Shown: piece by piece, positions 6,513 to 63,736 of the stretch
Position numbering within the stretch: position 1 is the first letter of the stretch
Layout: each line of letters opens with the position of its first letter
NCBI GenBank assembly: GCA_963802965.1
Contig: CAWDKS010000001.1
Location: forward strand, 202,864-266,863
DNA length: 64,000 bases
Reading direction: 5' to 3'
Source: an uncultured Verrucomicrobiae bacterium
GTDB taxonomy: Bacteria > Verrucomicrobiota > Verrucomicrobiia > Limisphaerales > UBA11358
Program-made: the position numbers and the translations under genes
Notes under the pieces: generated by a model
The model's input: the letters and a program-made list of their open reading frames with translations, nothing else
What the model was told of the DNA's origin: nothing
The model's database searches: none

Positions 6513-6539
6513 GTAGGACAGGCGTCGCGCCTGTCCTAC
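6513..6539. repeat. 12-bp-stem hairpin between convergent usp and VOC genes
   Basis: GTAGGACAGGCG-tcg-CGCCTGTCCTAC overlaps the VOC stop codon. There is no U-run. It is a possible bidirectional terminator or a solo repeat hairpin. Confidence 0.5.
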
Positions 6540-10191: not shown

Positions 10192-10445
10192 GGCGGGAAA
10201 ACTGGCCGGAAGCAGGGCGCGAATCAACGAAAAATGAATCAGGCGGCGTAAGTGAGGCATACTTGGACATTATGACAAACAAAGTTGCATTGTTTCGGAA
10301 GGAACGCCGGATTTATCCGGCAGGGCATTCAATCAAGCGAGCCCGCTGCCGCATGAATGCGGCGTTCCGTCGCAGTGTCGGGTGCGCCCGTGTGAGCAAG
10401 GTCTAAGGAATCGCCGGGAAGCACCGCCCTCATCCCACAAACCGC

Positions 10446-11222: not shown

Positions 11223-11314
11223 TTTTTCAACCGTTCAAGCGTTGAAGCGTGAAACCGCCAAACCGGTTTTGGCGCACGTTTGATTCCGGTTCAACGATTC
11301 AACGGTTTAACTCT

Positions 11315-14387: not shown

Positions 14388-14399
14388 GGCGTTTTTGGG

Positions 14400-14431
14400 G
14401 ATTGATGGATTGATGGATTGATGGATTGATG
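14400..14431. repeat. (GATTGATG)x4 perfect 8-bp microsatellite in the ilvB 5' UTR
   Basis: Read directly. Degenerate inverted copies (CATCCAATCATCCAG...) follow at about 14459-14495. Confidence 0.9.
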
Positions 14432-14526
14432 GGCCGACGCTTCGGGGCGTTTTCCCACCCATCCAATCATCCAGTTATCCAATAATCCATTCATTTTTTG
14501 GTTGTGGCTGGTGGCGCGGATTAAAC

Positions 14527-20186: not shown

Positions 20187-20250
20187 TTATTTTTTCAATC
20201 GTTGAAGCGTTAAAGCGATGAAGAGTTGAAGCGGTTTACGCTTCAGCGCT

Positions 20251-20844
20251 TTAACCCTTCAACGCTTCAACCTTTCCGTTAAATTGACTCATTGCCATTT
20301 CAATGCCGTCGGCCAGCCAGCATTCCGCCTGGTCGGCCGCCCGGCCCAAAACTTTTTCCATCACCGCCGCTTCCGCCGCGTCAAAACGGTCCAGCACGTA
20401 ATCCGTGATTTCCCGCGCGCCGTCCTTGCGGCCGATGCCGAGCCGCAACCGCGCAAACGCCTGCGTGCCCAGATGCTGCCCGACGGACTCCAGACCGTGA
20501 TGTCCGCCGCTGCTGCCGCCCGCCCGCAGGCGAATTTCGCCCAGCGGCAAATCCGCATCGTCCACCGCCACCAGCAACTGTTCCGGCGGCAACTGATAAA
20601 AACCCATCACCGCTTTCACCGCCTCGCCGCTCGCATTCATGAACGTCCGCGGCTGGCACAGCAGGACGCGGATGCCGTTGCGTTCGGCGCGCGCGACGCG
20701 GGCATTGAACTTCCGTTCGTTCCGCCAATCCACTTTCCAGCGCGACGCCAGTTTCCCGGCCAGCGAAAACCCGGCATTGTGGCGCGTCTTCGCGTATTCC
20801 GCGCCGGGATTGCCCAGTCCCGCGATGAGATGCCATGACTCCAT
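20251..20844 (-). CDS. pth: Peptidyl-tRNA hydrolase
   Basis: HLIAGLGNPGAEYAKTRHNAGF, RVLLCQPRTFMNASGEAV and VDDADLPLGEIRLRAGGSSGGHHGLES. The start could be the ATG at 20844 or the GTG at 20853. Confidence 0.9.
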   Translation of the reverse strand: MESWHLIAGLGNPGAEYAKTRHNAGFSLAGKLASRWKVDWRNERKFNARVARAERNGIRVLLCQPRTFMNASGEAVKAVMGFYQLPPEQLLVAVDDADLPLGEIRLRAGGSSGGHHGLESVGQHLGTQAFARLRLGIGRKDGAREITDYVLDRFDAAEAAVMEKVLGRAADQAECWLADGIEMAMSQFNGKVEALKG

Positions 20845-25520: not shown

Positions 25521-26729
25521 TTATGCAATCCAGCCGCCGCCGAGGACCAAATCGTCCTGATAAAACACCGCCGCCTGGCCGGGAGTGATGGCGCGTTGCG
25601 GCGCGTGCAGTTTCACACGGACGGAATTGTTTTCCAGCGGCGTCACCGTCGCAGGTGTGCCGGGATGGTTGTAGCGAATTTTGGTCGTTACTTCGATTGG
25701 CCCGGTCAGGTTGTTGAACGGAATCCAGTTGCAACTGCTCGCGGTGAATTCATCGCGGTCGAGCGCGGATTCGTCGCCGACGACGACCCGATTATTTTCC
25801 GCGTCCAGTTCGACGACGTAAACCGGCTTCGGCGTCGTGATGCCGAGGCCTTTGCGCTGGCCGATGGTGTAAAACTCGATGCCCTCATGATGACCAAGCA
25901 TGTGCCCGTGCAAATCCACAATTTCGCCGCGATGCTTTTGCACGAGGTTGGCCTGCTGGAGAAAGCCGCCGTAATTGTTGTCCGGCACAAAGCAGATTTC
26001 CATGCTCTCCTCCTTGTCAGCGGTCTTGAGCTGGCAATGCCGCGCGACTGCGCGCGTGTCGCTCTTGGTCTTTTCGCCGAGCGGAAACAGCGCGCGCGCG
26101 AGCTGGTCCTGCCGCAGCGAAAACAAAAAGTAGCTCTGGTCCTTCTTCAAATCGCGTCCGCGCTTGAGCAAGTAACGCCCCGTGGTAGGGACGGCGCGCT
26201 GCGCCGTCCGCGCCGCGTTCAGCGGCGCAATAGTTTCGCCCGCTACTTCGCGGGCGAGGACATCGCAGCGCGATGTCCCTACCACAGTAGGATTCGGGGC
26301 GCGCTCAACCCGCGCGAAATGGCCGGTGGCGATGAATTCCGCGCCGAGCTGGTTGGCACGGTCAATGAGCCGGCCGAACTTCAGGTTCTGATTGCACATC
26401 ACGCACGGATTTGGCGTGCGGCCGGCTTTGTATTCGTCGGCGAAGTATTGGATGACGTGCTTTTGGAATTCCGCCGCCTCGTCAATGAGGTAATACGGGA
26501 TGTCGAGCTTGTGGCAGACGGCGCGGGCGTCGGTGACGGCCTGCGGGCCGCAGCATTTGTCCTCGGCGCGGTTGACGCAATCCTGCGGCCAGAGCTTGAG
26601 CGTGATGCCGATGACCTCGTAGCCCTGCTCCAGCAACAGCGCTGCCGTGGCGGAGGAGTCCACTCCTCCGCTCATGCCAACGACCACGCGGATGCGCTTT
26701 TCTAAATTCAACAGGACGCAAATATACAA
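25521..26729 (-). CDS. mnmA: tRNA 2-thiouridine(34) synthase MnmA, carrying an in-frame repeat-derived insert
   Basis: The PP-loop VVVGMSGGVDSS, CCGPQAV, IATGHFARV, KDQSYFLFSL and ICFVPD are present. About 35 extra residues lie between GHFARV and LLKRGRD. Confidence 0.9.
   Translation of the reverse strand: MYICVLLNLEKRIRVVVGMSGGVDSSATAALLLEQGYEVIGITLKLWPQDCVNRAEDKCCGPQAVTDARAVCHKLDIPYYLIDEAAEFQKHVIQYFADEYKAGRTPNPCVMCNQNLKFGRLIDRANQLGAEFIATGHFARVERAPNPTVVGTSRCDVLAREVAGETIAPLNAARTAQRAVPTTGRYLLKRGRDLKKDQSYFLFSLRQDQLARALFPLGEKTKSDTRAVARHCQLKTADKEESMEICFVPDNNYGGFLQQANLVQKHRGEIVDLHGHMLGHHEGIEFYTIGQRKGLGITTPKPVYVVELDAENNRVVVGDESALDRDEFTASSCNWIPFNNLTGPIEVTTKIRYNHPGTPATVTPLENNSVRVKLHAPQRAITPGQAAVFYQDDLVLGGGWIA
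26183..26282. repeat. GGTAGGGAC...GTCCCTACC palindromic element inside the mnmA reading frame
   Basis: GGTAGGGACGGCGCGCTGCGCCGTCC...GGACATCGCAGCGCGATGTCCCTACC has the same termini as the intergenic copy at 1854-1985. It is translated as PNPTVVGTSRCDVLAREVAGETIAPLNAARTAQRAVPTT. Confidence 0.8.
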
Positions 26730-37040: not shown

Positions 37041-37104
37041 TCGGAGGGACGAGCTCTGCGAGTCCCATTTCAAATTCAGGGGTTCGTGGAACTCGTCCCT
37101 CCGA
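37041..37104. repeat. CGGAGGGACGAG...CTCGTCCCTCCG palindromic element in the regulator-kinase spacer
   Basis: TCGGAGGGACGAGCTCTGCGAGTCCC...GGTTCGTGGAACTCGTCCCTCCGA. Relatives occur at 58409 (inside pheT) and 63661. Confidence 0.8.
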
Positions 37105-45309: not shown

Positions 45310-47814
45310 ATGAAATTATTTCTCCGCCTTTTCGGGATCTGGCTGTTGCTCGGCTGCGCCTCCGCCGCGTGGTCGCAAACGACCGGGCCGAAAATTGACC
45401 GCGTGGACGTGAAATTTGTCGGCCCCGCGTCGGTCAGCGAGCCGTTCATCCGCGCCAACATCCGCCTCAAGGCCGGGGACATCTACCGCGCGAACAACAC
45501 GGAGGACGACGTTCACGCGCTCTACGCCACGGGACAATTTTACAACATCCGCGTCACGGCGGACCCGGCGGCGGACGGCGGCGTGATTCTGACCTACATC
45601 GTGCAGGTGCGCCCGCGGATCTCGGAAATCAAGCTGGAGGGCAACAAAAAGTTGAGCGACACAAAACTCCGGAAAAAAATCACCGTGAAGGTGGGCGACC
45701 CGCTGGACGAGCAGAAATTGTTCACGGACGCGCAGGAGATGCAAAAGCTCTACGAGAAATACGGCCACCCGGATTCGCAGGTGAAATACGTCCTGAACAT
45801 TGATGAAAACGCCGGCCGCGGCTCTGTCACGTTTGAAATCACCGAAAGTCCGAAAGTCAAAATCACCCATGTCGAATTCATCGGCTCGGCGGCGTTTTCG
45901 CAGAAGCAACTGCGCAAGGAAATCAAGACCAAGCAACGCTGGATGTGGTCGTGGCTGACCGGCCGGGGCACGTTCAAGCAGGATGACTTCGACGCCGACC
46001 GCGACGACCTGGTGGATTTTTACCGCAATCACGGTTATCTCGATTTCGAGATCAAGGACGTGAAGCTCGATCGCCCGACGACGAACACCATGGCCATCAA
46101 GTTTTACGTCTTCGAAGGGCGGCAATACCGGGCGGGCGCCATCACCTTCAGCGGCACGACGATATTTCCCACCAACGCGGTGAGTCCCGCCTTCAATCCG
46201 GGGCCGGAGCCGAAGCCAAAAACCAGCCCCGCCGCCGCCGCGTGGTTGAGAAACCGGAAACTGAACAAGGACTTCACGATGAAAACGGGCAGCATCTTCA
46301 CGCCCGACGGCCTGACCAAGGATAGCAAGGCCGTGGAAGATTTTTACGGCAGCCAGGGCCATATCGAAGTCGCGCAGGGCGAGGCGCTGCGGGTCGCGCG
46401 CGTGCCGAACGTGGACACCGGGACGATGGATTTGGAATTTCAAGTGGACGAGGGCCAGAAATCCTACGTGGAAAAAATCGAGATTCGCGGCAATTTGAAA
46501 ACGAAGGACAAGGTCATCCGCCGCGAACTGGCCATCTCGCCCGGCGAAGTCTTTGACATGGTGCGTGTCCAGGTCAGCAAGGAGCGCCTCGAAAATCTGC
46601 AATACTTCGACAAGGTGGATTTGCGGCCGGAGCCGACCGACCCGCCGATTGCCGGGCGCAAAAACCTGATTGTGAACGTCGAGGAACAAAACACCGGCAA
46701 GCTCACGTTCGGCGCGGGCTTCAGTTCGGTGGACGCGCTCGTCGGCTATGTTGAACTGACGCAGGGCAACTTTGATTTGTTCCATCCGCCCACCTTCACC
46801 GGCGGCGGCCAGAAATTCCGCCTGTTCGTGCAGTTGGGCACAGAGCGGCAGGACTACGAACTGTCCTTCATCGAACCGTGGTTTCTCAACCGCAAGCTGT
46901 CGTTGGGCGTGGACCTTTTCCGCCACCAGTTGGATTTCGAGAGTCCGAACAACATCTTTAACGAGACCCGCACCGGCATGAAATTGAGCCTCACCCGCGC
47001 CTTGGGGAGCGACTTCCTCATCGGCAGCGTCAGCTACGCGATTGAAGACGTGGGCATCTCACTGAATGATGGCTGGCATGACTGGGAATCAGTGATTCCA
47101 ACCAAGTCAAATCCCACCGGATTTATTACGCCCAATGTTCCGCAGGCCATTCTGGATGAAACCGGCGATCACTTTTATCAACGCTTCGGGGCGTCGCTGG
47201 CTTACGACACGCGCAACAGCACGCAACTGCCCAATCACGGCCAGCGCAGCGAAATTGACACCGAGCTAAGCACCGGTGACAAAACCTTTTACAAGGTCGA
47301 GGTCAAAAGCGATTGGTTTTTCCCCGGTTTCTTCAAGGGCCACGTGCTGGAAGCGGGCGGGCGCGCCGGCATTGCCGACAGCCTGAGTTCCGGCGACGTG
47401 CCATTTTATGACCGCTATTATCTTGGCGGCCTCTACTCACTGCGTGGTTTCAAATACCGGAATATCGGCCCGCGTGACTCAAATTACGGAAACATTCAAT
47501 ATCCGTATATGGCCAATGAGCCGATTGGCGGCGACAGCTACTGGTTTGGCTCGCTCGAATACAGCATACCCATTTTGGAAAAGGAAAACGGCATTGGCGT
47601 GCGCATTGCCCTCTTTTACGATGCCGGGGCCGTTGGCGCCGGGTCTTACTCGTTTTCGGGAAATTTTGACGATAACTGGGGCTTGGGCTTCCGTCTGAAC
47701 ATTCCGCACCTCGGCCCGTTGCGTCTGGATTATGGTGTGCCCATTCATCACGATCAATACAACAGCGGTTCCGGTCAATTCCAATTCGGCGCTGGTTATA
47801 CCCGTGAATTTTAA
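45310..47814 (+). CDS. bamA: Outer-membrane protein assembly factor BamA
   Basis: A signal peptide and five POTRA-like units (for example IEIRGNLKTKDKVIRRELAISPGEVF). The C-terminal barrel ends FQFGAGYTREF. Confidence 0.92.
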   Translation: MKLFLRLFGIWLLLGCASAAWSQTTGPKIDRVDVKFVGPASVSEPFIRANIRLKAGDIYRANNTEDDVHALYATGQFYNIRVTADPAADGGVILTYIVQVRPRISEIKLEGNKKLSDTKLRKKITVKVGDPLDEQKLFTDAQEMQKLYEKYGHPDSQVKYVLNIDENAGRGSVTFEITESPKVKITHVEFIGSAAFSQKQLRKEIKTKQRWMWSWLTGRGTFKQDDFDADRDDLVDFYRNHGYLDFEIKDVKLDRPTTNTMAIKFYVFEGRQYRAGAITFSGTTIFPTNAVSPAFNPGPEPKPKTSPAAAAWLRNRKLNKDFTMKTGSIFTPDGLTKDSKAVEDFYGSQGHIEVAQGEALRVARVPNVDTGTMDLEFQVDEGQKSYVEKIEIRGNLKTKDKVIRRELAISPGEVFDMVRVQVSKERLENLQYFDKVDLRPEPTDPPIAGRKNLIVNVEEQNTGKLTFGAGFSSVDALVGYVELTQGNFDLFHPPTFTGGGQKFRLFVQLGTERQDYELSFIEPWFLNRKLSLGVDLFRHQLDFESPNNIFNETRTGMKLSLTRALGSDFLIGSVSYAIEDVGISLNDGWHDWESVIPTKSNPTGFITPNVPQAILDETGDHFYQRFGASLAYDTRNSTQLPNHGQRSEIDTELSTGDKTFYKVEVKSDWFFPGFFKGHVLEAGGRAGIADSLSSGDVPFYDRYYLGGLYSLRGFKYRNIGPRDSNYGNIQYPYMANEPIGGDSYWFGSLEYSIPILEKENGIGVRIALFYDAGAVGAGSYSFSGNFDDNWGLGFRLNIPHLGPLRLDYGVPIHHDQYNSGSGQFQFGAGYTREF

Positions 47815-47815
47815 G

Positions 47816-50404
47816 ATGACTCGTTGCGCGAAAAAAATTCTGAGATCTCTGCCAAACCGGGGCGCGGACAGCTTTGTCCGCGAGTTCAGGTGGCCGGCAT
47901 GCTGGCGGACATGGCTGTCCGCGCTCCTCAACGCCACTCGCCACGGGCTTTGCAGAGGTCTCATTCTGTGTGCCGGCTCAACAGTCGGCCTGATGGCGCC
48001 GGCCGTGTCCGCGCAAATGGCGACGCCGCCAGGCGACATGCCGCTTTTCTTTGAGGCCAATCGCGGACAGGCAGACCATTCAGTTCAGTTCCTCGCGCGT
48101 GGACGCGATTCCCAATTCCTGATTTCGCCGGCCGGAGCGAAAATCGTCCTGCGCAAAGATGCGGCGGCGCCCGTGACGGTGCGAATGCAATTCATGGGCG
48201 CAAACCCACAAGCGCAAATCCGCGGCGATGCCGCATTGTCCGGCCAGGTCAATTACCTTGTGGGCAACGACCCCGCGCAGTGGCATACCGGGGTGCCGAC
48301 CTTTGCCAAAGTCCGCGTCGCGGAGCTTTATCCCGGCATCAACCTGGTTTATTACGGCAATCAGCAACGGCTTGAATACGATTTCACGATTGCTCCGGGG
48401 GCGAACCCGGATGCCCTTGCCATTCATTTCGACGGCGTGGACAGAATGTCAATCAATGCGCAGGGCGAACTGGTTTTGACCTTGAGTGGCGGTGAAATCC
48501 GCCAGCCCAAGCCGGTGATTTATCAGATGGCGAATGGCATACGCCATGAAATCAGCGGCGGCTACCGGCTGGCGCACGCACGCACCGTTGCCTTCGCTGT
48601 CGGCAACTACGATCACAGCCTGCCGCTGGTGATTGACCCGATCTTGAGTTACTCCACTTACTTCGGCGGCAATTATGGTGAAACTGCCTGGGCGGTTGCG
48701 ATCAACACAAACGACGGTTCCATTTACATGGCAGGCCAGACCTTTTCGACGCAATTCACGAACTGGCCGGTTCCACCCGGCGCATATCAGACAAATTTCC
48801 ATGGTGGTACTCTGACCGGTGATGCTTTTGTAGCCAAGTTTGACAACGCGGCACAAAATCTCATTTATTTTACCTACCTTGGCGGCAGCGGCGACGACGC
48901 CGCTTACGGACTGGCTGTGGACACCAACGGCGATGCTTATATCGCCGGTGTTACTGACTCGACAAATTTTCCTGTCAGGAACGGAATTTACACCAACATC
49001 AGCGGTACTCTGAATACCCATCTCGGAGTTTATCCTGTGGACGCTTTCGTTGCGGAATTGGGTCCCGGCGGTTCCAACTTGGTGTATTCCACCTATCTTG
49101 GCGGCGAAAGTGCCGATGCAGCCTTTGGCATCGCAGTGGATTTGGCCGGTAACGCTTATGTGACCGGCTTCACCTATTCAACGAATTTCCCGGTCAAAAG
49201 CCCGGTGCCTTATCAGTTGGCGGGGACAACAAACTTGTACTTGAACCACCTGGCCTGCACCAATACGGTGTACTACAATGCCAATGCCTTCATCGCCAAA
49301 ATTGCTCCCGGCGGCAACAACCTGATTTATTCAACCTACTTTGGCGGCAACAATTTTGATATCGGCGAAGGCATCGCCGTTGACAACCTCAACCAGGTTT
49401 ATGTGACCGGTTTCACCGCCTCGACCAATTTCCCAAACCTAAACGCATTCCAAAAATACTTGAACGGCTCGACAAATCAGGATTCCGCCTTAGACGCCTT
49501 TGTTGCCAAATTTGATTCGACTGGTACAAATTTACTTTACTCAACTTTTCTCGGTGGCATCAACGACGATGTCGCTTATTCCGTCGCCGCTGACAACAAC
49601 GGTGCCGCTTACGTGACCGGCTGGACAGTTTCAACCAATTTTCCAAATACCGTTACAAATTCCAATCTCTACAATGGGCTGACCAACAACTTGTATTACG
49701 GTTACAGTCTCACCACCAACGCCTTCCTGACAAAGATTACCAACGGCGTTCAGGCTGGAATCGCCTATTCCACCGTCTTTGGCGGCACCAATCTCAACAC
49801 TGACGTCGGCTACGGCGTGGCACTTGACGCGGCGGGCAATGTATTTGTCGTTGGCACCACCTCCTCGACCAATTTCCCGGTCACAACGAACAACCTCTCC
49901 GGTTTTCTCCGCGCGACCAACTCCGGCGGCAATGATGTGTTTGTCATCGCCTTCAACACCAATGCCACCGCCCTGCTTTATTCCGCCTATCTGGGCGGCT
50001 CGGCCGATGATTTTGGTTATGGCATCGCCGTGGATTCGCTGGGCAACGCCTATGTTGTCGGCCAGACGCTTTCGACGAACTTTCCCACGCTCAATGCCCG
50101 CCAGGCCACGCTCAACGGAACGAACGACACCTTCCTCGCCAAAATCCTGCTGACCGTCCCGTCGCCGGTGCTCACCATAACCACTTCCGGCAGCAATAAT
50201 TTCGAGATTTCCTGGCCGGCGGTGCTGCCGTTTGAGCCGGAACTGGGGCAATTGTTCGAGTTGGACTTCAACACCAGTTTGACCTCACCCACCAACTGGA
50301 TTTCGGCGGGCTTTCCAGTGGTGTTGACCAATAACTTGTATACTTACAGTTTCCCGTTAAACCCCATCTATACCAATGCGTTCTTCCGTCTGCGCGCGCC
50401 ATAG
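47816..50404 (+). CDS. Giant secreted beta-propeller (SBBP-repeat) protein
   Basis: FFEANRGQADHSVQFLARG in the N-domain, then more than 10 SBBP-type repeats (YSTYLGG...D.A.GIAVD..GNAYVTG.T.STNFP). The C-terminus is the FFRLRAP-type domain. The ATG lies 2 nt after the bamA stop, but the start is uncertain because a repeat element sits in the N-region. Confidence 0.8.
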   Translation: MTRCAKKILRSLPNRGADSFVREFRWPACWRTWLSALLNATRHGLCRGLILCAGSTVGLMAPAVSAQMATPPGDMPLFFEANRGQADHSVQFLARGRDSQFLISPAGAKIVLRKDAAAPVTVRMQFMGANPQAQIRGDAALSGQVNYLVGNDPAQWHTGVPTFAKVRVAELYPGINLVYYGNQQRLEYDFTIAPGANPDALAIHFDGVDRMSINAQGELVLTLSGGEIRQPKPVIYQMANGIRHEISGGYRLAHARTVAFAVGNYDHSLPLVIDPILSYSTYFGGNYGETAWAVAINTNDGSIYMAGQTFSTQFTNWPVPPGAYQTNFHGGTLTGDAFVAKFDNAAQNLIYFTYLGGSGDDAAYGLAVDTNGDAYIAGVTDSTNFPVRNGIYTNISGTLNTHLGVYPVDAFVAELGPGGSNLVYSTYLGGESADAAFGIAVDLAGNAYVTGFTYSTNFPVKSPVPYQLAGTTNLYLNHLACTNTVYYNANAFIAKIAPGGNNLIYSTYFGGNNFDIGEGIAVDNLNQVYVTGFTASTNFPNLNAFQKYLNGSTNQDSALDAFVAKFDSTGTNLLYSTFLGGINDDVAYSVAADNNGAAYVTGWTVSTNFPNTVTNSNLYNGLTNNLYYGYSLTTNAFLTKITNGVQAGIAYSTVFGGTNLNTDVGYGVALDAAGNVFVVGTTSSTNFPVTTNNLSGFLRATNSGGNDVFVIAFNTNATALLYSAYLGGSADDFGYGIAVDSLGNAYVVGQTLSTNFPTLNARQATLNGTNDTFLAKILLTVPSPVLTITTSGSNNFEISWPAVLPFEPELGQLFELDFNTSLTSPTNWISAGFPVVLTNNLYTYSFPLNPIYTNAFFRLRAP
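47861..47927. repeat. GCGCGGACAGC...GCTGTCCGCGC palindromic element inside the predicted signal-peptide n-region
   Basis: GGCGCGGACAGCTTTGTCCGCGAG...GGCGGACATGGCTGTCCGCGCTCC. A relative in the opposite orientation occurs in pheT at 59696. Confidence 0.75.
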
Positions 50405-54337: not shown

Positions 54338-54433
54338 AAACATCGAACACTGAACATCGAACGCTCAACGTCCAGTTTCCTTCCGGCGCAATCATTGGAT
54401 GTTCGATGTTGGGCGTTGAATGTTGGATGTTCC
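54338..54433. repeat. Degenerate inverted array of (A)ACATCGAAC / TCAACG units
   Basis: GAACATCGAACGCTCAACGTCC...GGATGTTCGATGTTGGGCGTTGAATGTTGGATGTTCC forms a long imperfect hairpin. Confidence 0.6.
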
Positions 54434-54499: not shown

Positions 54500-55561
54500 A
54501 TGGCTGGATTGATTGATCAAATTGAGCCTTTGAAACAAGCCGCGCTCACGGACTTGAAAGCCGCTCCCGACCTCGCCGCGCTCGAACAGGCCAAGGGCAA
54601 CTGGATTGGCGCGCACGGCAAATTCACCGCGCTGATGAAACAGCTCGGCACGCTGTCCAAGGAGGAAAAGCCCGCCGCCGGCAAGGCCATCAACGCCGCC
54701 AAAATCGAACTCGAAGCCGCGCTGGCCGGACGCCGCTCCGAACTCGAGCTGGCGGCCGCGTTGCCCAAGGAACCGACCGATTTCACGTTGCCCGGACGCC
54801 GTCGTGCGCTCGGCAAACTGCATCCGCTCACGCAGGTGACCGAGGACATCGTCCGCGCCTTCCGCAAGCTCGGCTTTGCCGTCGCCGACGGCCCGGAAAT
54901 CGAGGACGAATACCATTGCTTCGACGCCCTCAACACCCCCGCCGACCATCCCGCCCGCGACACCCAGGACACGTTCTATCTTGCCAATAACGCGCCGAAT
55001 GTTTCTCCCTCTCCTGGGGGAGAGGGCCGGGGTGAGGGCGGTCATAAACCACTCTTGCTCCGCACCCACACATCGTCAGTGCAGATCCGGGTAATGAAAT
55101 CGCAACCTCCACCCATTCGCATCATCGTGCCGGGCCGCGTGTATCGCCGCGACAACGCCGACGCGACGCACAACCCGACCTTCGAGCAGATCGAAGGGCT
55201 TTACGTGGACAAAAACGTCACCGTCGGCGATTTGAAGGGCACGGTGGAATTTGTCTTCAAGGAATTGCTCGGCGAGGAGACGAAGATCCGTTTTCGTCCG
55301 CACTATTTCAGCTACACCGAGCCGAGCTTCGAGATTGATTTCAGCAACGCGCTGGTGAAGAAGCTGGGCAAGGACTGGCTGGAAATTGCGGGTTGCGGCA
55401 TGGTGCATCCGCAGGTGTTTGAAAACGTCGGCTACGACCCCGACATCTGGACCGGCTGGGCGTTCGGTTTCGGCATCGAACGCATCGCCATGATTCGTTA
55501 CGGCATCAACGACATCCGCCTCTTTTACGAAAACGACGTGCGGTTCTTGGAACAATTTTGA
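54500..55561 (+). CDS. pheS: Phenylalanine--tRNA ligase alpha subunit, with in-frame repeat insert
   Basis: HPLTQV, ADHPARDTQDTFYL, LLRTHTSSVQIR, RIIVPGRVYRRD, FRPHYFSYTEPS, GCGMVHP and the tail [21 protein letters not shown]. About 20 extra residues lie between DTFYL and LLRTHTS. Confidence 0.93.
   Translation: MAGLIDQIEPLKQAALTDLKAAPDLAALEQAKGNWIGAHGKFTALMKQLGTLSKEEKPAAGKAINAAKIELEAALAGRRSELELAAALPKEPTDFTLPGRRRALGKLHPLTQVTEDIVRAFRKLGFAVADGPEIEDEYHCFDALNTPADHPARDTQDTFYLANNAPNVSPSPGGEGRGEGGHKPLLLRTHTSSVQIRVMKSQPPPIRIIVPGRVYRRDNADATHNPTFEQIEGLYVDKNVTVGDLKGTVEFVFKELLGEETKIRFRPHYFSYTEPSFEIDFSNALVKKLGKDWLEIAGCGMVHPQVFENVGYDPDIWTGWAFGFGIERIAMIRYGINDIRLFYENDVRFLEQF
55004..55041. repeat. Half-copy of the 2101-2257 element (right arm) inside pheS
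   Basis: TCTCCCTCTCCTGGGGGAGAGGGCCGGGGTGAGGGCGG compared with CTCCCTCTCCTGGAGGAGAGGGCCGGGGTGAGGGCGG at 2221-2257. It is translated as SPSPGGEGRGEGG. Confidence 0.8.
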
Positions 55562-55563
55562 CG

Positions 55564-56096
55564 ATGCAGAACGAACTCGACATCGTTCGCGACGTTTCGA
55601 AACGGCTGGACGCTGCGGGCATCGGCTACATGCTCACCGGTTCGATGGCGATGAACTATTTTGCCCAGCCGCGCATGACCCGCGACATTGATGTCGTTGT
55701 TGAGTTGCAACCCGGTGATGCTGGGCGCGTGGTGAAATTGTTCAGTCCGGACTACTACGTTTCACGCGAGGCGGTGGACAGTTCCATCGCGCACCAATCA
55801 CTGTTCAACCTCATCCACAACGAAAGCATCATCAAAGTGGATTGCATCGTCCGCAAGCAGAGTGAATACCGCCTCAACGAATTTAATCGCCGGCAACGCA
55901 TCAAAATTCAGGATTTTGAGATGTGGATCGTCAGCAAGGAAGACCTGATTCTCTCCAAACTTTTTTGGGCAAAGGATTCCCGCTCGGAAGTGCAGCTCAG
56001 CGACGTGAAGAACCTCATTGGCACCGGCTGCGACCGCGCCTACATCGAACGTTGGACGGCGGAACTGGGTTTGACTAACTTGTGGAAGGAAATCGT

Positions 56097-56100
<4 letters not shown>
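55564..56100 (+). CDS. Minimal nucleotidyltransferase-fold protein (cassette 1, gene 1)
   Basis: It carries an NTase signature, G-S-x13-D-x-D, in LTGSMAMNYFAQPRMTRDIDVVV. It is 178 aa and its ATG lies 2 nt after the pheS stop. Confidence 0.75.
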
Positions 56101-56378
<278 letters not shown>

Positions 56379-56379
<1 letters not shown>

Positions 56380-56990
56380 TGGCGAAGGAAATTAAAATTT
56401 ACGAATCCGCTGTGCCGATTTCCGGCGAGGAAGTCGAACACGCAATTCTTTTAATTCGCGGGCAAAAAGTGATGCTTGACCGCGACCTCGCCCGGCTTTA
56501 CGGCGTGCAGACCAAAATTCTAAACAAAGCGGTCAGCCGCAACCTCGACCGGTTCCCTGCCGATTTCATGTTCCAATTGACCCCGGAAGAACAAGATTCT
56601 TTAAGGTTCCAATTTGGAACCTTAAAGCGCGGGCAACATTCCAAGTATCTGCCGTTCGTCTTCACGCAGGAAGGCGTCGCCATGCTTTCGGGCGTGCTGC
56701 GCAGTCCGCGTGCGGTGCAGGTCAACGTCGCCATCATGCGCGCCTTCGTGCGACTGCGCGAAACGCTGTCGTTGCACAAGGAACTGGCGCACAAGCTCGC
56801 CGACCTGGAACGCAAGATTGAAAACCACGACGAAAACATCCGCAGCCTGTTTGACGCCATTCGCCATTTGATGACGCCGCCGGAAACGCCGCGCCGCGAA
56901 ATCGGCTTCCACGTCAAGGAAGACAGCGTGCCGTATCGGGTGAAAACCAGAAAACCCGTAAAAGCTCCGCTAGGAGCGAAATCTTTGTAA
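56379..56990 (+). CDS. ORF6N-domain (KilA-N-related) DNA-binding protein (cassette 2)
   Basis: LLIRGQKVMLDRDLARLYGVQTKILNKAVSRNLDRFPADFMFQLTPEE is the ORF6N signature. The last 9 codons (KAPLGAKSL*) lie inside a MITE-like element. Confidence 0.85.
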
Positions 56991-57150
56991 CAACGAAACC
57001 AGATAAATTTTTAAGCTCCGTCAGGAGCGACATCGAAAACAAATGAACAACGCCGGTCAAAAAATTGTGGTTGGCGAAATATGCCGCCCCGATGGGGCTT
57101 GGCGGATTGGTGGCGTGCTGACTACAAAGATGCCGCTCCTAGCGGAGCTT
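56962..57150. repeat. MITE-like element with AAGCTCCGCTAGGAGCG...CGCTCCTAGCGGAGCTT termini
   Basis: The 17-bp terminal inverted repeats are perfect. An internal third copy, AAGCTCCGTCAGGAGCG, lies at 57013. The left end supplies the ORF6N stop and the right end abuts pheS-tail copy C. Confidence 0.8.
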
Positions 57151-57152
57151 GG

Positions 57153-57213
57153 CGGCATCAACGACATCCGCCTTTTCTACGAAAACGACGCGCGGTTTTT
57201 GAAACAGTTTTAA
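57153..57213 (+). repeat. Copy C of the pheS 3' end (61 nt, 3 mismatches to copy B)
   Basis: It encodes [19 protein letters not shown]. It shares GAAACAGTTTTAA with copy B, whereas the resident end reads GGAACAATTTTGA. Confidence 0.9.
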
Positions 57214-57226
57214 GTCAAATATTTTT

Positions 57227-57814
57227 ATGAGTGAAGACAAAAAAAACGAATGTGGGACTTCATTTGCGAAAGCGCTTCGCACTCTAACAAATAATATGGA
57301 TGGTTTGCGTGAATTCGTAACCACCGTGGAATCGTATTTGAAGGAACGACAAATGAAAATTGTCGAAAAGAATGCATCGAATTTAACCCCGTTCTATCTG
57401 GCGATGCGCAAGCTTAAACCCGAAGACTTCCCGACCGCGAAACTTTCAGATGAAGAGGTTGCAAAACGGTTCAAGGGTAATATTTCGATAAATGTCAAAG
57501 ACGAAGGGGACGGGAAAAAAACTGCGCAAATCAAAATTTCAGGGGAAGGTGAAAAGGATTTTGATCGTGCTATGGCAGAATTGCGCAAAGCTGAAGACAT
57601 GTCTGCAAAAAGCCAGCGGTTTCAGCTTGGCTGGTTAGCCCTGTGTGAAAAATTTGATGAATTATTCCCTCTTTTGCCAAAGGTGATTAAGAGCAAACAA
57701 CTCTCTCGGGAAGAACTTCGTGACTTCCCAATTTTTGAAGAAGTTCGGAAAGACAAACGCTGTAATAAATTTCTTCCAAAAGAACTTGAGAAGGTAAAGC
57801 AAATTGAAAAATGA
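57227..57814 (+). CDS. Hypothetical protein, low-GC orphan (cassette 3)
   Basis: A 195-aa Lys/Glu-rich ORF, roughly 40% GC against about 60% in the flanks. Its stop overlaps the pheT ATG (ATGA). I recognise no family. Confidence 0.55.
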   Translation: MSEDKKNECGTSFAKALRTLTNNMDGLREFVTTVESYLKERQMKIVEKNASNLTPFYLAMRKLKPEDFPTAKLSDEEVAKRFKGNISINVKDEGDGKKTAQIKISGEGEKDFDRAMAELRKAEDMSAKSQRFQLGWLALCEKFDELFPLLPKVIKSKQLSREELRDFPIFEEVRKDKRCNKFLPKELEKVKQIEK

Positions 57815-60405
57815 AAGTCACCTTTAACTGGCTCAAACAATACGTTGATTTCAACTGGTCGCCCGAAGAATTGACCGAGCGGCTCACCATGCTCGGCCTC
57901 GAAGCCGAAAGCGTCCGCAAAATGGGCGGCGAGTTCGAGGGCGTCGTCGTCGCCCAAATTCTTACGCGCGACCCCGTGCCCGGCTCGGACAAGCTCTCCG
58001 TCTGCAAGGTCAACGACGGCAAGGGCGAGCGCACCATCATTTGCGGCGCGCAGAACCACAAGCCCGGCGACAAAGTCCCGCTCATCCTGCCGAACTTCGC
58101 GTTGCCGCTGAAGCCCGGCGACAAGGAGCCGTTCGTCATCAAGGAACGAAAAGTTTTCGGCATCACCAGCCACGGCATGATGTGTTCGCCGCAGGAGCTC
58201 GGCCTGCCGGACAAGGTGGACGGCCTGCTCATTTTGCCTGCGGACGCGCCCGTGGGAAAACCATTCGCCGAATACCTCGGTCGCGCGGGTGATGACGTGG
58301 TTTATGATTTGGAAATCACGCCAAACCGACCGGATTGGAACAGTGTTATCGGCATCGCCCGCGAAATCGCGGCGGTGACGGGAAACAAGCTGAAGATGCC
58401 GCAAATCACGGAGGGACGAGTTACACGAGTCCCCAATTCTGCCGAGCAGTCAGGGGCTCGTGGAACTCGCCCCTCCGAAAAGCCGGAAAATTTGGTCAGC
58501 GTGCGCATCGAAGACGCCGAGCTATGCCCGCGTTACACCGCGCGGGTCGTCCAGGGCGTGAAAATCGGGCCAAGCCCGGACTGGCTCCGCTCGACACTGG
58601 AGAAAGTCGGCATCCGTTCGATTAACAACGTCGTGGACGTGACGAATTACGTGATGCTCGAAAGCGGCCAGCCGCTGCACGCGTTTGACTATCATTTGGT
58701 GGCACGGGCGTCCCGCCCGTGTGTTGATGACGAAACTCACAGGCAAGATGCCTGTGCCACTATTATCGTCCGCCGCGCCGCCGCCGGCGAGAAGTTCAAG
58801 ACGCTCGACAATCAGGAGCGCACGCTGACGAGCGAAATGCTTTTGATTGCCGACGAACAAAAAGGCATCGCCCTCGCCGGCATCATGGGCGGCCAGAACA
58901 CGGAAATTAATAGTTCGACGACGGATGTGCTCATCGAAAGCGCCTATTTTTCGCCGACGAACATTCGTCGCACGAGCAAGGCGCTCGGTCTACGCAGCGA
59001 GTCCAGCTACCGTTTTGAGCGCGGCGCGGACATCGGCATCTGCGATTGGGCCAGCCTGCGCGCGGCACAATTGATTCTGGAAACCGCCGGCGGCCAGCTC
59101 GCCGAAGGCGTCGTGGACGCGTATCCGAAACCCGTTGAGCCGAAGCACGTGACGCTGCGCCATCACAAGGTCAACGAACTGCTTGGCATCGCCTTAAAAC
59201 CGGAGGAGTGCGAATTTTATCTCGGTCAGCTTGGATTGAAGGTTGTGAATCGCAAGGCGCGTCCGGTGGGAGCGGGCGGCACGCCGGAGCCGGTGACGTT
59301 TCAAATTCCAACCTTCCGCGTGGACTTGAAACGCGAGGTGGATTTGATCGAGGAAATCGCCCGCCTGCACGGCGTGGACAAGATTCCAGCCACGCCGCCG
59401 CGCGGGGCGATTGGCGCAAACGCGTTTGATTCCGTCCACGACGAAATTGCCGAGGCGCGTCGCATCCTCACCGGCCTCGGCTTGAACGAAGCGCAAGGCC
59501 AGACGCTGGTGGCGAATGCAGAATGCAGAATGAAGAATGAAGAATTGGTTGCGCTCGCGAATCCGTTGAGTTCAGACATGGATGTGCTGCGTCCAAGTCT
59601 GCTGCCCGGCTTGATTCATTCATTGCGGCACAACATCACCCGGAAGAATTACGATGTGGCTTTGTTTGAAATCGGGCGGGTGTTCGCGTCGGGCAGGAGC
59701 GCGGACAGCCATGTCCGCGAGAACAAACCAACGCCGGAAAACGCGGACAAAGCTGTCCACGCTCCTTCCGAAGAGCGCTGCGTGGCCATCGCGCTCACCG
59801 GTCAGCGTCATCCTCTGTTCTGGAGTGGTGATGACCGCGACGCAAAGTTTGACGCTTACGATTTGAAAGGCCTGCTGGAGGAATTTTTCGAGCAATTCGG
59901 TTTGCGCGGAATGACGTTCAACCGCCGGGCTGAAAGCACCACGCTCTTTCTCGAATCGAGCACGGTTCAACTTGGCAGGCAAACCTTGGGTGAACTCGGC
60001 CAGTTGTCGCCGGTGCTGGCGAAGAAATACGATTTGCGCGACGCGGTTTTTCTTGCCGAGCTGAACCTGGATCAACTGCTCGCGCGGCGTAATCCGGCGA
60101 AAACGTTCAGGCCGTTGCCGCAATTCCCGTCCATCCGCCGCGACGTGGCGATGCTCGTGCCGGAAGCGACGACGCACGAGTCGGTTTGGCAAACGGTCAG
60201 GAAAACCAAGCCCCCGAATCTCGAAACGGTGGAATTGTTCGACGTGTTCCGGGGCAAGAATGTGCCGGAAGGTCAAAAGAGCCTGGCCTACGCGTTCACC
60301 TATCGTTCACCGGAAAAAACTTTGACGGACGCCGAGGTGAACGCCGCGCACGCGAAAATCTTGGAAGCCTTCAAACAGCAGTTGAACGCGGTTGTGCGCG
60401 AGTAG
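57811..60405 (+). CDS. pheT: Phenylalanine--tRNA ligase beta subunit, carrying several in-frame repeat inserts
   Basis: MKVTFNWLKQYVDF, a tRNA-binding domain, B3/4 and B5 domains (ITPNRPDWNSVIGIAREI, INNVVDVTNYVMLESGQPLHAFD, SSYRFERG), and an FDX-ACB C-domain. Confidence 0.93.
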   Translation: MKVTFNWLKQYVDFNWSPEELTERLTMLGLEAESVRKMGGEFEGVVVAQILTRDPVPGSDKLSVCKVNDGKGERTIICGAQNHKPGDKVPLILPNFALPLKPGDKEPFVIKERKVFGITSHGMMCSPQELGLPDKVDGLLILPADAPVGKPFAEYLGRAGDDVVYDLEITPNRPDWNSVIGIAREIAAVTGNKLKMPQITEGRVTRVPNSAEQSGARGTRPSEKPENLVSVRIEDAELCPRYTARVVQGVKIGPSPDWLRSTLEKVGIRSINNVVDVTNYVMLESGQPLHAFDYHLVARASRPCVDDETHRQDACATIIVRRAAAGEKFKTLDNQERTLTSEMLLIADEQKGIALAGIMGGQNTEINSSTTDVLIESAYFSPTNIRRTSKALGLRSESSYRFERGADIGICDWASLRAAQLILETAGGQLAEGVVDAYPKPVEPKHVTLRHHKVNELLGIALKPEECEFYLGQLGLKVVNRKARPVGAGGTPEPVTFQIPTFRVDLKREVDLIEEIARLHGVDKIPATPPRGAIGANAFDSVHDEIAEARRILTGLGLNEAQGQTLVANAECRMKNEELVALANPLSSDMDVLRPSLLPGLIHSLRHNITRKNYDVALFEIGRVFASGRSADSHVRENKPTPENADKAVHAPSEERCVAIALTGQRHPLFWSGDDRDAKFDAYDLKGLLEEFFEQFGLRGMTFNRRAESTTLFLESSTVQLGRQTLGELGQLSPVLAKKYDLRDAVFLAELNLDQLLARRNPAKTFRPLPQFPSIRRDVAMLVPEATTHESVWQTVRKTKPPNLETVELFDVFRGKNVPEGQKSLAYAFTYRSPEKTLTDAEVNAAHAKILEAFKQQLNAVVRE
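58409..58477. repeat. CGGAGGGACGAG...CCCCTCCG element (69 bp) inside pheT
   Basis: CGGAGGGACGAGTTACACGAGTCCCC...GGGGCTCGTGGAACTCGCCCCTCCG is translated as EGRVTRVPNSAEQSGARGTRPSE. Confidence 0.8.
58700..58759. repeat. TGGCACGGGCGTCCCGCCCGTG...CACAGGCAAGATGCCTGTGCCA element (60 bp) inside pheT
   Basis: Two adjacent hairpins bounded by GGCAC/GTGCC, translated as ARASRPCVDDETHRQDACAT. It interrupts the conserved LHAFD...I.VR block. Confidence 0.7.
59524..59556. repeat. Heptanucleotide tandem repeat (GAATGCA)2(GAATGAA)2GAATT inside pheT
   Basis: Read directly. It is translated as NAECRMKNEEL. Confidence 0.85.
59696..59765. repeat. GGAGCGCGGACAGC...GCTGTCCACGCTCC element inside pheT
   Basis: GGAGCGCGGACAGCCATGTCCGCGAG...GCGGACAAAGCTGTCCACGCTCC is translated as RSADSHVRENKPTPENADKAVHAPS. 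It belongs to the same family as 47861-47927. Confidence 0.75.
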
Positions 60406-60491
60406 ATGGGATTTCGGAACGCCGCGTTCACGCGGCCTGCTTCTGTTGACCTATGATTGCTGCCGTCTGAAGGCGGCGTTCCTCGCAGATT

Positions 60492-63573: not shown

Positions 63574-63660
63574 AAATGTTCCTCGTGTCAAATTTGGCTA
63601 ACAGCTAACGCAACGGACCGCGCTGGGCAATGATAATTTCTTCACAATTTTGGAATCGCT

Positions 63661-63732
63661 TCGGAGGGACGAGTTCCACGAGTCCCTGATTTTTCGGTTT
63701 TAGTTTGGGACTCGTGGAACTCGTCCCTCCGA
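63661..63732. repeat. CGGAGGGACGAGTTCCACGAGTCCC...GGGACTCGTGGAACTCGTCCCTCCG element (perfect 25-bp inverted termini)
   Basis: Read directly. It sits immediately after the stop of the L,D-transpeptidase gene. Confidence 0.85.
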
Positions 63733-63736
63733 AAAA

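Follow-up and report, generated by a model that had tools for sequence, protein, structure and literature searches.

In-frame, REPIN-like palindromic elements in pheT of a soil Verrucomicrobium and the recurrent occupation of the same loops in its relatives

Palindromic repeats inside the pheT reading frame

In a 64-kb stretch of DNA from an uncultured Verrucomicrobiae bacterium (contig CAWDKS010000001.1, positions 202,864 to 266,863; the whole stretch is referred to here as the window), the gene pheT, which encodes the beta subunit of phenylalanyl-tRNA synthetase (PheRS), was found to contain three strong palindromes. In the explanation that accounts best for these repeats, and which is considered highly probable, they are palindromic elements resembling REPINs (doublets of repetitive extragenic palindromic (REP) sequences forming one long hairpin) that lie in frame within pheT and are translated. 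Alignments of related genes showed that the same loops are recurrently occupied, clade-wide, by many element families. The host, a soil Verrucomicrobium, is a REP-rich Limisphaerales/Pedosphaera-type member of the Verrucomicrobiota.

The gene consists of an intact open reading frame (ORF) specifying an 864-aa protein, in which all five bacterial-type PheT Pfam domains (tRNA_bind, B3_4, B5, tRNA_synthFbeta and FDX-ACB) were detected above gathering scores, with E-values of 6e-67 for B3_4 and 1e-46 for tRNA_synthFbeta. The product aligned over residues 1-863 with PheT of Pseudomonas aeruginosa (PDB 4p71; E=6e-126), and end to end with six bacterial PheT crystal-structure chains of 785-800 residues. 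For comparative purposes, a search of 5.8 billion proteins yielded 120 relatives of 824-925 aa (77-100% identity), those named by source being Verrucomicrobiota, while a scan of species-representative genomes yielded 80 loci (67-83% identity), some of them from records titled Limisphaerales or Pedosphaera. The latter, together with the window, provided 81 pheT genes at the DNA level, and 195 distinct PheT sequences were used in the clade comparison. Several verrucomicrobial pheT records (L043, L047, L060, L061, L068, L073, L079 and others) carry titles such as Klebsiella, Bifidobacterium, Akkermansia or Proteobacteria and probably represent mislabelled or mis-binned metagenome-assembled genomes (MAGs).

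The gene, the three palindromes and the heptanucleotide array in its interior, and the copies of these repeats elsewhere in the window, are as follows (TRF, Tandem Repeats Finder).

57811-60405, plus strand: pheT (ORF list, Pfam, PDB alignment)
58409-58477, plus strand: insert 1, long inverted repeat of the CGGAGGGACGAG family; 25-nt arms, 88% complementary; DNA fold -28.6 kcal/mol, z=-7.7
58699-58760, plus strand: insert 2, REP doublet; 27-nt arms, 78% complementary; z=-4.7
59514-59545, plus strand: heptanucleotide array, GAATGCA/GAATGAA, 4.6 copies; TRF period 7, 96% matches
59692-59769, plus strand: insert 4, REP doublet of the GGAGCGCGGACAGC family; 28-nt arms, 86% complementary; z=-6.5
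37041-37104, no strand assigned: insert-1 family copy, intergenic, 64 nt, 7 nt upstream of a minus-strand ATG
63660-63733, no strand assigned: insert-1 family copy, intergenic; 27-nt arms, 100% complementary
47859-47927, no strand assigned: insert-4 family copy, between a gene ending at 47811 and the next gene

The palindromes were folded as single-stranded DNA and compared with 200 dinucleotide shuffles, none of which folded equally well. A preliminary description of this DNA had proposed that pheT contains four unrelated repeat-derived insertions, of which the three palindromes were upheld as lineage-specific, in-frame insertions, while the heptanucleotide array proved to be repeat-derived without any gain in length. 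Nor are the palindromes unrelated, as they represent different families of one element class. The description had also pointed to intergenic relatives of insert 1 at 37041 and 63661 and of insert 4 at 47861, all of which correspond to the copies listed above, those of insert 1 being full copies.

Insert 1 reads as (T)EGRVTRVPNSAEQSGARGTRPSE and is positioned in the linker preceding the B3_4 domain, a site (site 1) represented by a 7-aa linker in 73 of the 195 orthologues. Each of its arms has only a weak inner stem of 5 bp (GGGAC/GTCCC), and seven matches to CGGAGGGACGAG were found in the window against 0.34 expected. The consensus of this family, TCGGAGGG...CCCTCCGA, covers 71 nt in pheT, the intergenic copies being 64 and 72-74 nt long.

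Insert 2 is composed of two small inverted hairpins, CACGGGCG-TCC-CGCCCGTG and CACAGGCA-AGA-TGCCTGTG, with GTGGCAC and GTGCCAC at its ends. It reads as VARASRPCVDDETHRQDACAT and, as had been observed before, splits a conserved block of the B3_4 domain, namely between PLHAFDYHL and IIVRR, in the loop just past the HAFD motif. At this site (site 2), 55 of the 81 species representatives possess the empty allele HLIAKGKDGKPTIVV, which is always 51 nt long. The 64-kb window contains no second copy of insert 2, whereas its REP unit, GTGGCACRGGCNTCCNGCCYGTG, was found on at least 120 metagenome contigs (L081-L200), several of which contain two or three copies each, and is common in soil, peat and sediment metagenomes. 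Among the matches listed, 24 of 136 copies of GTGGCACRGGCNTCCNGCCYGTG (~18%) lie inside coding-like ORFs, where they are often read as SGTGVPPV or HGQDARAT; these ORFs would belong to other genes of housekeeping type, among which, judging by motifs visible in the translations, there appear to be some resembling aconitase, class II aminoacyl-tRNA synthetase and penicillin-binding-protein genes. Thus, two of the three families have intergenic copies in the window and the third is dispersed over metagenome contigs, in agreement with the repeat status originally assigned to them.

Insert 4 reads as (G)RSADSHVRENKPTPENADKAVHAPS and is flanked by GRVF and EER in the catalytic-like module (site 4). 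Each of its arms holds GCGGACA-n4-TGTCCGC (GCGGACA-GCCA-TGTCCGC). The family occupies site 4 in ten genomes with its hairpin kept (20 predicted pairs), and the hairpin is conserved across 11 copies of the family. In more distant relatives, the empty form of this site is RVFxxxNGxxKEER (xxNGxxxEER).

The arms of inserts 2 and 4 were shown to be self-complementary units of ~20 nt, as is characteristic of REP stem-loops, and two such inverted units within one long hairpin, the defining arrangement of a REPIN, are represented by arms of 25-28 nt with 78-88% complementarity. Inserts 1, 2 and 4 are three families of a single element class, that of REPIN-like REP doublets. The preliminary observation that the first two inserts have lengths that are exact multiples of three carries little weight, as the element ends are fuzzy, and as the net gain over the empty allele is 51 nt (not 69) at site 1 and 33 nt (not 60) at site 2.

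The heptanucleotide array (site 3), which had been placed at 59524-59556, is genuine, with the period and copy number given above, although TRF positions it at 59514-59545. The encoded residues, ANAECRMKNEE, belong to a loop in the catalytic-like module, and the array exhibited no structure when folded (z=+1.5). This loop is 24-25 aa long in nearly all of ~200 relatives, and two residues shorter than that of P. aeruginosa. Judged by these alignments, the array is repeat-derived, adds no length and is not an insertion; it would have replaced the ancestral loop without a change in length, and the frame would be kept only if it slips by three units (21 nt). Other clean heptamer arrays (GAATGCC, GAAGTCA and GAAGGCA) are found at site 3 in relatives, and site 1, when empty, often consists of a heptamer array as well, sometimes with a unit shared with site 3; GAAGTCA was found at two different pheT loops.

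A second class of repeats in the window consists of tandem arrays with units of 7-8 nt arranged as inverted pairs, which makes each palindrome arm a microsatellite in its own right (14399-14494, 20194-20271, 11226-11310 and 54339-54431). Heptamer arrays related to this class fill pheT sites 1 and 3, as well as a loop of pheS, in relatives.

Lineage specificity, translation and turnover of the inserts

Comparison with P. aeruginosa PheT (4p71) revealed gaps of ~20 residues at the positions of both insert 2 and insert 4; at insert 1, the Pseudomonas linker is shorter. In orthologues with 68-77% identity, the places of the inserts read 'AKGKDGKPT' and 'xxNGQTKEER'. The palindromic inserts thus fall where other PheT proteins have short loops, as had been suggested, and the possibility that they represent ancestral sequence was not borne out, since neither distant orthologues nor solved PheT structures contain them. 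Because the sites are empty or shorter in distant orthologues and in P. aeruginosa PheT, the segments at inserts 1, 2 and 4 are, by alignment, derived, lineage-specific insertions. Under the alternative that they are long-standing lineage-specific PheT loops or assembly artefacts, rather than mobile DNA, one would point to the many sequences that come from metagenome assemblies and nothing else. Empty alleles exist, the same families are found outside pheT, and ~200 independent assemblies show inserts, some of them on contigs as long as 0.7-2.5 Mb, which makes this alternative scarcely credible.

All 81 pheT genes consist of one uninterrupted frame devoid of stops, despite 74 occupied site-instances falling into 27 DNA-level clusters. 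Of inserts that are removed or skipped, only about a third would be expected to preserve the frame. Because every one of the 81 orthologous genes keeps its frame, the inserts are almost certainly translated, as far as can be judged from DNA, and would add 17-25 residues each. The inserted peptides are hydrophilic.

The occupancy of the three sites varied markedly across the clade, as summarized below (empty alleles and peptide families among the 195 PheT sequences; DNA clusters among the 81 species; minimum state changes on a 195-leaf tree for fine classes, coarse classes and presence/absence, respectively).

Site 1: 73 empty alleles; 18 peptide families; 11 DNA clusters; 84, 74 and 38 changes
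Site 2: 91 empty alleles; 13 peptide families; 9 DNA clusters; 73, 68 and 50 changes
Site 4: 65 empty alleles; 17 peptide families; 7 DNA clusters; 71, 59 and 22 changes

Peptide families were defined by greedy clustering at 50% identity, which over-splits some of them (F4 and F8 at site 1); single-linkage clustering was discarded, having over-merged the families. Different families were observed in proteins that are 2-5% apart outside the inserts (e.g. P0041 versus P0113, and P0092 versus L026), while the genes of L016 and L022, with 88.7% DNA identity, are near-identical up to the insert edges and unrelated within them. The occupants of these sites in relatives form strong hairpins (RNA minimum free energy about -30 to -66 kcal/mol), and many have GGTAGGGAC or GTAGGAC at the start and its complement at the end. 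A further copy was detected within the occupant's own 10-kb flanks for 13 of the 74 occupants, and in the flanks of some sampled locus for 45 of them.

Occupied alleles were shown to lack 11-27 nt of the ancestral loop, with junctions that vary between families. Half-elements at site 2 (L037, L004, L028 and L030) and footprints at site 4 (L030, HRAAGTF; L022) show what is, from their sequences, erosion by in-frame deletion. The loops may cycle through insertion, erosion and re-insertion, and such cycles would explain the ancestral loop residues that are missing from occupied alleles. In the window, three non-autonomous palindromic elements of 62-78 nt would have landed in the pheT coding sequence and would have been retained where the net change keeps the frame, where the frame in use has no stop and where the loops tolerate extra hydrophilic residues. 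The inserts would represent neutral or slightly deleterious passengers and not functional modules.

An adaptive role, in which inserts are kept to diversify exposed PheRS surfaces (e.g. against an inhibitor, toxin or phage factor) or to add a function, would fit the extreme diversity at fixed loops of both PheRS subunits, the remaining protein being 75-100% conserved. On the other hand, empty alleles, half-elements and footprints are common, the occupants belong to ordinary genome-wide repeat families that are also found in intergenic DNA and in unrelated genes, the conserved feature is the hairpin and not the peptide, and no sign of any interacting factor was found. An adaptive role is thus considered very improbable.

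Occupancy of PheRS loops and mobilization of the elements

To relate the pheT loops to other DNA, one hairpin detection threshold was applied to all sequence classes in the window and the 80 loci. This 1.49-Mb sample was found to contain 216 hairpins versus 11 in shuffled copies, and the window alone ~19 versus almost none in shuffles, with two to three copies per family. pheT genes accounted for 37 hairpins in 202 kb, other coding interiors for 26 in 894 kb (~0.02 per kb), ~10 of which lie at a single spot in pheS, and intergenic DNA for 92-103 in 399 kb (~0.25 per kb). Among the 81 species representatives, each pheT loop of ~40 nt is occupied in 27-41% of cases, so that the per-nucleotide occupancy of the three loops is at least ~15-fold above that of intergenic DNA.

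The loop of pheS and a further coding element in the window have the following positions.

54980-55057, plus strand: repeat-derived loop in pheS (54500-55555; Pfam tRNA-synt_2d, E=5e-97), LANNAPNVSPSPGGEGRGEGGHKPLL
26182-26285, minus strand: GTAG-tagged REP doublet of 104 nt in mnmA (25524-26690, minus strand), in frame, giving VVGTSRCDVLAREVAGETIAPLNAARTAQRAVPTT

The pheS loop, between DTFY and LRTHTS, is 8 aa long in 8 of 47 loci and 10-42 aa in the other 39 (at least 16 aa in 37), with several families represented. The mnmA product is a tRNA 2-thiouridylase, for which the Pfam match is stretched (tRNA_Me_trans, E=8e-72).

A flank test at matched divergence, which is of low resolution as it uses 100 protein residues, did not reveal closer flanking sequence in genes that share an occupant family. 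The pheS hot loop, the ~15-fold excess and this flank test argue against tolerance as the full account of loop occupancy, to which a slower disappearance of elements from coding DNA, recombination over short tracts and mosaic MAG assemblies could also contribute.

One refinement of the REPIN-like explanation is that the hot spots are preferred landing pads, in which a hairpin resident in a loop, or native loop DNA resembling the cleavage or target motif of the element, draws further REPIN-type elements that enter or displace it, one family following another at fixed positions. The occupancy of the loops and its excess over intergenic DNA are consistent with this, as is the lack of closer flanks in carriers of a shared family. 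Furthermore, one family may recur at one site in lineages that are 14-25% apart while close lineages differ, the GTAGGAC family exhibits three left junctions at site 2, indicative of at least three separate events, and the CCGAC found natively at the right-hand border of site 2 is similar to CCTAC, an element end. Conversely, the junctions lie at structural anchors (RVF/EER and HL/IVVRR), a pattern that selection on tolerated deletions would also give; occupancy could be elevated if elements are lost more slowly from coding DNA; a limited set of old insertions could have been distributed by short-tract recombination between related populations; and the flank test is limited to its 100 residues. 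In P0079, a suspected nested element was traced to the internal expansion of a single REP loop. Preferred landing is regarded as possible but less likely than not. Somewhat more doubtful is the fuller version, in which three PheT loops and one PheS loop act as fixed landing pads where many REPIN-type families insert, erode and get replaced, and targeted re-insertion into PheRS loops as such is viewed with the same scepticism. If the loops do serve as landing pads, the elements or their transposase would home to resident hairpins or near-cognate motifs in coding DNA, and an essential enzyme would possess hypervariable peptide loops made by selfish DNA.

REPIN-like elements would be mobilized in trans by a Y1 (HUH) transposase of the REP-associated tyrosine transposase (RAYT) type, an assumption that we favour by a small measure. 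GTAG...CTAC ends are present in many site occupants of relatives and in window elements at 6513-6539 and 26182-26285. In two related genomes, two different RAYT-like ORFs were found no more than ~1 kb downstream of pheT (L033, 13438-14043, plus strand; L032, 12623-13207, minus strand), with matches to NCBIfam NF047646 (E=1e-20 and 2.5e-14, respectively) and HUH-like motifs; that of L032 is flanked by repeated sequence.

Several observations weigh against the explanation of the pheT inserts as translated, REPIN-like elements. The window inserts start with (A)CGGAGGG, GTGGCAC and AGGAGCGCGG, i.e. with GGAG or GTGG and not the canonical GTAG. No RAYT gene was detected in the 64-kb window with an approximate Escherichia coli RAYT as query, which makes this result a lead only, and the two RAYT-like ORFs of relatives score 74 and 53 bits, respectively, against the NF047646 cut-off of 80 and have no Pfam match. 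No target-site duplication was seen and occupied alleles have lost loop DNA, so they are not simple insertions. The case for translation is drawn from DNA reading frames, and a full-length AlphaFold2 model of PheT, based on an alignment of 61 sequences from close relatives, was too poor for loop mapping (mean predicted local distance difference test score 51, predicted template modelling score 0.25). Lastly, the sequences are mostly from MAGs, and some insert combinations could represent assembly mosaics of related strains.

Some of these points would also suit classical miniature inverted-repeat transposable elements moved by a DDE-type insertion-sequence transposase instead of a RAYT, namely the lack of a strict GTAG tag in the window inserts and of a RAYT gene found in the window, together with the architecture of insert 1, a single long inverted repeat whose arms each have only a weak inner stem. 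Against such an origin, no direct repeat was found around the three insert-1 family copies (pheT and two intergenic), occupied pheT alleles lose target DNA, the self-complementary units of inserts 2 and 4 are paired in inverted orientation, in keeping with REPIN architecture, many occupants in relatives carry GTAG...CTAC, and RAYT-like genes are present in the clade. Mobilization by a DDE-type transposase is thus unlikely.

Two further features surround pheT in the window. A palindromic element lies directly downstream of the gene.

60416-60482, no strand assigned: palindromic element of the GGAACGCCG...CGGCGTTCC family, 11 nt past the pheT stop codon

A relative of this GGAACGCCG family is located at 10298-10371, right after the stop codon of a gene ending at 10269, both copies being terminator-like in position. 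Upstream, the region between pheS and pheT (55558-57814) encodes a weakly matched DUF6036/AbiEii-like nucleotidyltransferase, an ORF6N-domain protein and a low-G+C 195-aa protein. As pheS and pheT are adjacent and only 11 nt apart in at least one relative (L201), this gene trio looks like an inserted islet, at least from gene order.

Taken as REPIN-like passengers, the inserts illustrate that several sites of one essential, highly conserved enzyme can take up selfish hairpin DNA simultaneously, and that a sizeable share of repeat copies in REP-rich Verrucomicrobiota is coding, the ~18% given for GTGGCACRGGCNTCCNGCCYGTG referring to one family and the matches listed. In practice, such inserts make proteins longer and give rise to spurious 'hypothetical' peptide motifs; assemblies may break at them, and orthology or marker alignments may lose clarity, pheS and pheT being common phylogenomic markers. 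Turnover at fixed loops moreover represents a natural experiment for the rates at which REPINs are inserted, decay and are replaced, and a test of hairpin targeting.

Comparison with known systems

Rickettsia palindromic elements (RPEs), reportedly described by Ogata et al. in 2000 and 2002, are selfish palindromic repeats that are present in frame in essential genes and translated, and are thought to lie in surface loops. The parallel with RPEs, drawn at the outset, is apt as a description of mechanism. RPEs measure ~100-150 bp and belong to a reduced intracellular genome, whereas the inserts described here are 62-78 nt long, occur in another phylum and probably bear no sequence relation to RPEs; the likeness is functional only. 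To our knowledge, different species share orthologous RPE insertions at a given site, with no replacement by other families. Variants of Rickettsia guanylate kinase that have or lack an insert have reportedly been compared in their kinetics.

Like coding microsatellites and tandem repeats with a unit that is not a multiple of three, the heptamer array of pheT is read through, and only three-unit changes keep the frame. Unlike coding microsatellites, the length of the array is fixed clade-wide while the sequence of its unit varies between species.

REPIN-RAYT systems (Bertels and Rainey 2011, PMC3116915), the persistence of whose REPIN populations has been addressed in later work, share with the present elements the inverted REP doublets, the long hairpins, probably the many copies per genome and, in this clade, RAYT-like Y1 genes. 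They were described as extragenic, whereas many copies are coding here and several unrelated families coexist; furthermore, the link to a RAYT is putative in our case, and GTAG is replaced by GGAG or GTGG in the window inserts.

The closest precedent is the catalogue of in-frame intragenic GTAG/CGTC REPs by Di Nocera et al. (2013, BMC Genomics 14:522; PMC3733652), in which ~70 were assigned to Opitutus terrae (Verrucomicrobia). The GTAG cases are most numerous in this species, hits in other species include glycyl- and isoleucyl-tRNA synthetase genes, and PheRS is missing from the list of genes with intragenic REPs (PMC3733652). The novelty suggested in the preliminary description was therefore overstated. 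As in that catalogue, the elements described here are G+C-rich short palindromes, often inverted dimers, that lie in frame in conserved proteins, where the catalogued REPs add 7-30 residues; some genes are hit at two sites, targets include RNA-binding proteins and aminoacyl-tRNA synthetases, and the phylum Verrucomicrobia is shared (PMC3733652). The present elements differ in that they occur in a Limisphaerales-type order and represent other repeat families, and while the earlier study considered single genomes, here one loop was found to accommodate many families across species, with turnover of presence and absence (PMC3733652). Full-text literature searches returned no description of one protein loop occupied by many REP families across related species. 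The elements in pheT accordingly belong to a known kind of event, of which the turnover at hot spots is the part that may be new.

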